Shown: positions 62,536 to 63,000 of the stretch, piece after piece
Numbering within the stretch: position 1 is the first letter of the stretch
Layout of the letters: every line of letters starts with the position of its first letter
Sequence record: PV714129.1
DNA from: Escherichia phage Mizar
Length of the DNA stretch: 64,000 bases
Direction: 5' to 3' (one strand)
Position numbers and translations under genes: made by a program
The notes under the pieces: generated by a model
Databases searched by the model: none
Told to the model about the DNA's origin: nothing
The model's input: the letters and a program-made list of their open reading frames with translations, nothing else

Positions 62536-62638
62536 CTATTCTAAATGCTTCAATGAATGATTGCTCGCCTGAGCAACTAAACCAGGCGGCAAAACATTTT
62601 AAAACATCTTCAGACCCTTCTATAATCAATTTAGCCAT
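62414..62638 (-). CDS. small acidic hypothetical protein (74 aa)
   Basis: track ORF. Confidence 0.4.
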   Translation of the reverse strand: MAKLIIEGSEDVLKCFAAWFSCSGEQSFIEAFRIGDITGNYPTTDITVRGYGINEPIQLVEYDLATDEEIPYVD

Positions 62639-63000
62639 TATAGACTCTCAGTAAAGGTACGAGCTATAACGTCGCGCTGCTGTTCCGGAGTCAGAGAGTT
62701 AAAGCGAACTGCATAACCGGATACACGGATGGTCAGCTGCGGATATTTTTCCGGATGCTTAACTGCATCTTCCAGAGTTTCGCGACGCAGAACGTTAACG
62801 TTCAGGTGTTGACCACCTTCAATTTTAACTTTAGGTTGATGTTCAATTTCAATTTCGCGGGCGTGTAAACCGTAGAAAATTTCCGGGTCTACAATAGCGT
62901 CTTCTTTAAAAGTCTTAGAGACAATAATCCGGGCTTGAGTACCGTCTTCAAAATAAATAGTGCCTTTATGTTCACCTTCAAGAATTTGATATGCTTTCAT
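62638..63000 (-). CDS. grcA: autonomous glycyl-radical cofactor (GrcA/YfiD-like spare-part protein)
   Basis: 120 aa; C-terminal ~60 aa ([59 protein letters not shown]) matches my recollection of E. coli GrcA, including the RVSGYAV glycyl-radical motif. Confidence 0.85.

Follow-up and report, generated by a model that had tools for sequence, protein, structure and literature searches.

Pyruvate formate-lyase (PFL) that has been cleaved by oxygen can be restored in vitro by two small proteins, YfiD of E. coli (GrcA, P68066) and Y06I of phage T4, both of which are radicalised by the PFL activase (PFL-AE), as a passage of PMC8683613 citing Wagner et al. 2001 relates. In YfiD, the structured radical domain comprises residues 61-127; the preceding residues 1-60 are disordered, yet binding and activation depend on them (PMC8683613). 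The T4 protein is the product of vs.6 (UniProt P13316, GRCA_BPT4), a gene conserved in six of six T4-like genomes (PMC1524935). Here we analyse the corresponding gene in a 64,000-nucleotide (nt) stretch of Escherichia phage Mizar (PV714129.1), the whole of which is called the window below. The open reading frame (ORF) at 62638-63000 on the minus strand starts with ATG, ends with TAA and encodes 120 amino acids. It is the Mosigvirus (RB69-like) orthologue of T4 vs.6 (Y06I): full-length protein identity to Vs.6 of PP01 and T4 is 95% over 120/120 residues, the product falls into the same 90% cluster as P13316, and the gene order vs.8-vs.7-vs.6-vs.5-vs.4-vs.3-regB-vs.1-vs matches the annotation of phages DCP548, PP01 and T4. 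An initial annotation, made from the DNA letters, had named a GrcA-like protein with a T4 homologue that reconstitutes oxygen-cleaved PFL. The homology is confirmed by the identity and gene order just given and the activity by the cited passage, and the minus strand is the sole addition to that observation.

Gene, annotation and in-vitro function have thus been described before. What we propose in addition, with a probability of roughly 85%, is that the Vs.6 protein of the window acts as a spare part and is encoded by a chimeric gene that was recently overwritten by E. coli grcA, in a process that recurs among T4-like phages.

Host and phage parts of the vs.6 gene

The initial annotation had stated that about 60 C-terminal residues of the product match E. 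coli GrcA residue for residue and that the N-terminal half is different. Alignment bears out both points: residues 61-120 equal GrcA residues 68-127 at 60/60 positions, the RVSGYAV motif included, whereas residues 1-60 retain only weak similarity, in the pattern ARxIVxK..FxED.V.

We aligned the phage gene and E. coli grcA from the stop codon and compared the last 183 nt, also against 80 other bacterial grcA genes. In this part the window gene is 97-98% identical to E. coli (178/183 for strain 1190, 179/183 for K-12), followed by another Escherichia species with 176 identical positions, Citrobacter amalonaticus with 165 (90%) and Salmonella with 150 (82%); the remaining species score lower. Phage homologues from outside Tequatrovirus and Mosigvirus reach 116-157/183 against the window gene. 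The core of the similarity is an uninterrupted exact match of 157 nt between gene nt 179-335 (62666-62822, minus strand), which encode the structured glycyl-radical domain, and nt 200-356 of K-12 grcA. Gene nt 1-165 are essentially unalignable with E. coli grcA, with about 17-57% identity per 30-nt interval before nt 166, and identity then rises to 100% across nt 179-335, an abrupt change of the kind that marks a conversion tract. By blastn, vs.6 matches E. coli grcA with E=5e-82 and finds it in each of 5,426 E. coli genomes; when the whole window was compared by megablast with the 5,426 complete E. coli genomes, this stretch was the sole match. The nucleotide identity to pflB is about 79%, and the window gene is clearly nearer to grcA than to pflB in both protein and DNA.

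Base composition and synonymous divergence (dS) separate the two parts of the gene in the same way. The 5' half (gene nt 1-178, residues 1-59; 62823-63000, minus strand) has a GC content of 0.36 in a window of 0.37 overall, and a GC content at third codon positions (GC3) of 0.25; its dS to T4 is 0.55, an ordinary phage divergence. In the 3' half GC3 is 0.42, which is donor-like, the matching part of E. coli grcA having 0.43. The dS of the 3' part is 0.12 between the window and E. coli and 0.046 between T4 and E. coli, compared with 0.36 for E. coli and Citrobacter and 1.0 for E. coli and Salmonella. For the same two bacterial comparisons the 5' part gives 0.57 and 0.80. Because the bacterial values are of the same order in both parts, grcA has presumably descended vertically among bacteria, which points to transfer from host to phage; the same direction is indicated by the composition of the tract, which is host-like and not phage-like. 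Taken together, these data support the view that the 3' half of the gene was copied from chromosomal grcA of E. coli.

The initial annotation had suggested a relatively recent capture from an enterobacterial host. Recent host DNA is what the 157-nt exact match and the dS of 0.12 indicate, but the capture of a new gene is not. In unconverted T4-like relatives, among them Karamvirus-like and CC31-like phages, the 3' half is 75-79% identical to E. coli with a GC3 of 0.22-0.30, and vs.6 homologues also occur in T5-like and RaK2-like jumbo phages. Judged by these relatives, the whole gene with both its halves is a long-standing resident of T4-like genomes and the lineage of the window gained no new gene. 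The event was very probably the overwriting, by host DNA, of the 3' half of a grcA homologue that the phage already had. Recombination is very active in T4-type phages, which are known to take up markers from plasmid DNA that is homologous to their own. We envisage an old, phage-adapted grcA homologue in which gene nt 179 to about 335-353 would have been replaced by chromosomal grcA of E. coli while the phage was infecting its host, gene conversion by homologous recombination being the most likely route; since the tract matches the K-12 allele exactly over 157 nt, the event would be recent.

The two edges of the tract differ in kind. On the left it ends at codon 60/61 (GrcA codon 67/68), where phage-host homology ends, and this point lies within about seven residues of the border between the disordered and the structured domain of YfiD. 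On the right, host homology ends at the stop codon, and the last 10-28 nt retain lineage-specific bases. In the window this 3' tail comprises gene nt 336-363 including the stop codon (62638-62665, minus strand), as delimited by variable-site tables and the downstream alignment. The four remaining differences from E. coli (336A, 354G, 357T and 360A) are all synonymous and all lie within these last 28 nt. The tail carries a GAGAG Shine-Dalgarno-like element 6 nt 5' of the downstream ATG, which itself overlaps the stop codon (TAATG). We infer that the tail is shielded from conversion by its role as the predicted ribosome-binding site of the downstream ORF. Homologous gene conversion fits such a patch, whose left end is set by loss of homology and whose right end is set by selection.

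A Tequatrovirus, Escherichia phage OES_C-2, has a 357-nt vs.6 with a rearranged region directly 5' of the tract. No tract found is closer to E. coli (184/185), and the 3' tail is also of E. coli type except for 354G, which suggests that another right-hand end-point was used there.

The product and its proposed function

The product has the architecture of a GrcA protein, being a small stand-alone protein whose C-terminal glycyl-radical domain carries RVxGY. It matches the Pfam family Gly_radical (2e-18; 67 bits against a cut-off of 22) and, by phmmer, the NMR structure 6OWR of E. coli GrcA/YfiD over residues 21-120 (1.9e-42), so that homology to GrcA reaches back to residue 21 and into the phage-type half. 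Residues 57-120 align to residues 696-759 of PflB (3e-26, about 77% identity over 64 residues); the C-terminal domain therefore duplicates the segment that PflB loses upon cleavage by oxygen. The RVSGYAV motif occupies residues 92-98 (62707-62727, minus strand), and Gly95, encoded by GGT at 62716-62718 on the same strand, aligns to Gly102 of GrcA and Gly734 of PflB. The window protein is thus an orthologue of a biochemically validated member with all the structural features of the family. A single-sequence AlphaFold2 model was uninformative about the N-terminal half, with a predicted local distance difference test score (pLDDT) of 37.

On this analysis the protein is most likely an autonomous glycyl-radical cofactor, or spare part, that is activated by PflA and serves cleaved PflB. 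The PflA of the host would install the radical on Gly95, and the 60 C-terminal residues would slot into PflB cleaved by oxygen at Gly734 and restore PFL activity. The phage-specific N-terminal half, in a role like that of the disordered half of GrcA, would aid binding to cleaved PFL and installation of the radical. The restored enzyme could keep up the fermentative supply of acetyl-CoA and ATP in the infected cell under the microaerobic conditions of the gut.

The exact protein of the window is also deposited as "GrcA [Shigella sonnei]" on a contig of 169,206 bp, and near-identical proteins carry the labels Salmonella enterica, E. coli and Enterococcus faecalis. These entries are T4-like phage contigs or fragments within bacterial assemblies.

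Recurrence and alternative readings

At least 95% identity to E. coli grcA is found in 638 phage records, whose 3' 185 nt are 95-99.5% identical to the chromosomal gene. Among the matches listed, the match starts at grcA nt 200 or at most 2 nt from it in 35 of 35 rows. In a comparison of five Mosigvirus and six Tequatrovirus copies, 12 fixed differences separate the two genera within nt 1-178 and one within nt 354-363, and nt 179-353 contain none (Fisher p=4e-4 for all sites; for third positions only, 8/59 versus 0/58, p=0.006). The absence of fixed differences within the tract implies that it is much younger than the split between Mosigvirus and Tequatrovirus. The individual phage copies carry scattered private changes that form a star around the E. 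coli allele. Two sites that are polymorphic among the phages, nt 192 (A/G) and nt 219 (T/C), also segregate among E. coli strains, the window agreeing with K-12 at nt 219; such coincidences hint at several E. coli donors without proving them.

A second genus provides a more direct view of the process. In the Klebsiella phages of the genus Jiaodavirus, the 5' half of vs.6 has a GC content of 0.36 and the 3' half one of 0.55, with the junction at the same codon 60/61, and the 3' half bears the Klebsiella-type signature LLDAVEH in place of the LEDAVKH of E. coli-type tracts. Against the panel of 80 bacterial species, from which K. pneumoniae was absent, the Jiaodavirus tracts find a best match of 88-91%. 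The donor was traced by scanning an exact 32-mer of the tract through metagenomes, followed by a look-up of the exact protein. The scan returned about two dozen contigs of bacterial type, with about 57% GC and a GrcA protein identical to GRCA_KLEP7, and the look-up returned ten Klebsiella chromosomal loci with ung-grcA synteny. Over nt 181-338, one Jiaodavirus genome is identical to the common Klebsiella allele at 158/158 positions. Phage vB_KpnM_GF is identical to a second Klebsiella allele at 157/158 positions and shares 5/5 of the distinguishing single-nucleotide polymorphisms. This second allele was found in one contig, and a genome with flanking sequence at 93% identity to the main group has a close form of it. 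The two alleles differ at 5-6 sites and each is present in different phages; phage Wolf_ER13 resembles a mixture of both. All Jiaodavirus copies share one phage-specific 3' tail, which forms GAGG and changes TESL to TEAL (Ser to Ala). Since different Klebsiella alleles occur in different phages, half of the gene must have been replaced at least twice within Jiaodavirus, in independent events from distinguishable donors. Host-to-phage replacement is, as judged by the alleles compared, independent in different genera, and within Jiaodavirus it involved at least two donor alleles. The process thus appears to recur, with different T4-like genera carrying tracts that match the alleles of their own hosts.

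Two database entries were met along the way. An ung-grcA region of chromosomal type lies in a 275-kb record that is described as a Klebsiella sp. WOUb02 plasmid and is probably a chromid or a misassembly, and an enterobacterial grcA in an assembly named Vagococcus sp. WN89Y is probably a contaminant.

Could a single event account for the E. coli-type tracts? The tract might have been captured or converted from E. coli once, in one phage, and have passed between Tequatrovirus and Mosigvirus afterwards, through recombination of phages with each other during co-infection. We consider this unlikely, though it has real arguments on its side, and several of these belong to the observations that weigh against our proposal as a whole. 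The left boundary is the same throughout the E. coli phages examined: in 13/13 sequences the tract starts at nt 179 and is preceded by the phage-type AAAA (nt 175-178), and repeated conversion and one conversion followed by spread are not separable by this boundary. T4-like genomes are known mosaics, and vs.8 holds another block that is near-identical between T4 and the window. Tequatroviruses isolated on other genera, namely Yersinia or Citrobacter, retain the E. coli-type tract, so conversion cannot be rapid relative to laboratory host switching. The coincidences at nt 192 and 219 concern two single sites only and could be recurrent wobble mutations. For Jiaodavirus, the assignment of contigs to Klebsiella species draws on the protein name and the GC content, and the tracts of phages PKO111 and pzk-kv6 match none of the bacterial alleles compared. 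On the side of the protein, the function is transferred from T4 Y06I, whose C-terminal half carries R73H relative to the window protein, and the score for the NCBIfam GrcA model (TIGR04365 / IPR011140) is 158.6 bits, below the equivalog cut-off of 170 bits; this shortfall of 11 bits arises because the N-terminal half is divergent, the profile aligning only from residue 18.

Against spread from a single event, phages that exchanged the tract and nothing else would have to cross over inside the gene, while the N-terminal halves are genus-specific, with their 12 fixed differences. The phage sequences are arranged like a star around E. coli alleles and share the E. coli polymorphisms at nt 192 and 219. 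Moreover, the two Klebsiella alleles in different Jiaodavirus phages require more than one host-to-phage transfer in that genus. Repeated replacement from the host chromosome is the more probable course.

Three further observations concern the match between phage and host. A query with Salmonella grcA returned no phage with a Salmonella-like tract: all matches were 80-90% identical and had the E. coli-type tract. The vs.6 gene of K. pneumoniae phage phi1_146002 is nearly the same as that of E. coli phage RB16 (175/178 and 183/183); both encode the E. coli-type protein signature at about 83% nucleotide identity to E. coli, so that matching to the host type is not universal. Finally, a viral-labelled IMG/VR contig of 19 kb has a grcA-like gene that, over its last 183 nt, agrees with Yersinia artesiana grcA at 167/183 positions; it could be a third host-matched tract or merely a bacterial fragment.

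The initial annotation had offered two functions, maintenance of anaerobic host metabolism or of the phage NrdD. Service to the PFL of the host is supported; that the protein is instead a spare part for the oxygen-sensitive NrdD of the phage is highly improbable. The idea has some appeal in that the window does encode NrdD (45292-47121, minus strand, 609 amino acids, NCBIfam 1e-272, motif RTCGYLG), itself a glycyl-radical enzyme cleaved by oxygen, and an older comparative paper guessed at a role of vs.6 in nucleotide metabolism (PMC1524935). The mechanism, however, needs a duplicate of the C-terminal piece that is lost. What the window protein duplicates is PflB 696-759 (77%), and similarity to the C-terminal segment of the window NrdD with its RTCGYLG motif was undetectable by BLASTP (E=2.6). 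In addition, the passage of PMC8683613 on Y06I has the T4 protein working with PFL and PFL-AE. The window thus encodes two unrelated glycyl-radical proteins, NrdD and Vs.6.

A reading in which the gene was acquired in ancient times, and the identity reflects strong purifying selection on the glycyl-radical domain without any recent host DNA, is even harder to sustain. The domain is indeed extremely conserved, and RB16 and many Enterobacterales encode the same 60 residues. As the synonymous sites of RB16 are saturated relative to E. coli (dS of about 2), amino-acid identity alone would not prove recency. Selection on the protein, however, leaves the synonymous identity of the window gene unexplained: its dS of 0.12 stands against about 2 for RB16 and E. 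coli and 1.0 for E. coli and Salmonella, and neither the 157-nt exact match nor the jump in GC3 from 0.25 to 0.42 at the boundary follows from it. An assembly artefact, with host reads contaminating the phage assembly or a chimeric contig, may come to mind at first sight of a perfect K-12 match inside an AT-rich lytic phage genome, but is hardly conceivable, given that the junctions are in frame within one ORF, that 638 phage records from independent sequencing, reference T4 among them, have the same structure, and that the phage copies carry substitutions that are private or specific to their lineage and end in a phage-specific 3' tail.

Genome setting and relation to known systems

For vs.6 of the window, DNA identity is 98% with Escherichia phage DCP548, a Mosigvirus, and 92-93% with Tequatrovirus phages; over a stretch of 12 kb, the window shares 96-98% identity with RB69-like E. 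coli phages. The upstream neighbour is the vs.7 homologue (63007-63378, minus strand, transcribed in the same direction), which is assigned by synteny with DCP548, PP01 and T4. A GAGG Shine-Dalgarno sequence for vs.6, read from the DNA at 63005-63008 (minus strand), lies 4 nt 5' of the ATG and overlaps the TGA stop codon of the vs.7 homologue. Downstream, an ORF of 74 amino acids occupies the position of vs.5 (62414-62638, minus strand). Its ATG overlaps the TAA of vs.6, and this overlap suggests translational coupling of the two genes. The ORF is longer than T4 Vs.5 (58 amino acids); its first 18 residues are 78% identical to that protein, the remainder is unrelated, and it carries no annotation in DCP548, the closest phage record. 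A scan of 61300-64000 for promoters and terminators gave 8 matches against a shuffled expectation of 7.2, that is, chance level.

In the vs.8 homologue, at about 63600-63830, a block is 90-100% identical to T4 per 60-nt interval (mostly at least 95%) between flanks of 60-85% identity. The block has no E. coli match and is another mosaic patch between Mosigvirus and Tequatrovirus. Because sliding identity between T4 and the window shows conserved blocks such as this one elsewhere, low divergence between phages alone is not diagnostic, and the argument for the host tract in vs.6 rests on its identity to the host.

In the open-access literature searched, to which the T4 genome review PMC150520 did not belong, we found no report of the nucleotide-level mosaic or of recurrent replacement by host alleles at vs.6. 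We lean towards the view that vs.6 is a standing hotspot of conversion from host to lytic phage: in any T4-like phage that retains a grcA homologue, the half encoding the radical domain would be repeatedly re-copied from the chromosome of the enterobacterial species that the phage mainly infects. Its left limit would be the domain boundary, where homology ends, and its right limit the phage-specific tail with the ribosome-binding site. If this is true, the tract would be a built-in record of the recent host species or even allele, and chromosomal DNA of a cell under destruction by a T4-like phage would still recombine into the phage genome in nature. At this locus, recombination from a host chromosome into a strictly lytic phage is seen in a clean case that is open to experiment, and the tract may mark the recent host of the phage. 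There are practical consequences as well. A 2026 paper proposes grcA as a pan-Straboviridae marker for quantitative PCR (PMC12845203); with primers in the 3' half of grcA, the chromosome of E. coli would be amplified. The tract will likewise trigger contamination filters and host prediction based on BLAST.

Compared with the described systems, the gene is closest to T4 vs.6, which likewise encodes 120 amino acids, lies between vs.7 and vs.5 in the regB-denV region and has the same chimeric structure, its 3' part being identical to E. coli grcA at 180/183 positions. The two proteins differ at six residues, five of them in the N-terminal half and one in the tract (R73 in the window, H73 in T4). 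At the DNA level the N-terminal half has diverged by about 12%, and the window has the K-12-type 219C and a Mosigvirus-specific 3' tail. With E. coli GrcA/YfiD the product shares the radical motif, the structured domain, the predicted activase PflA and the predicted target, cleaved PflB. Its N-terminal half is seven residues shorter, however, and its gene is part of a phage cluster of overlapping or adjacent ORFs instead of standing under the host grcA promoter. The C-terminal domain of PflB (residues 696-759; PDB-code 1H16 and others) is the piece that the spare part replaces; there it belongs to a protein of 760 residues, here to a stand-alone protein of 120. The vs.6 genes of Jiaodavirus have the same left boundary and the same succession of an AT-rich phage N-terminal half, a host-like C-terminal half and a phage-specific tail, but their tract comes from Klebsiella grcA, whereas that of the window comes from E. 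coli.

A more distant parallel is found in the cyanophage genes psbA and psbD, which are reported (Zeidner 2005; Sullivan 2006) to be host-derived metabolic genes of T4-like lytic phages that exchange patches with host alleles. Gene, host clade and scale are different in the case of vs.6, where the patch is one tract the size of a domain, about 160-175 nt long, whose left edge is fixed and whose identity to a named host allele reaches up to 100%.

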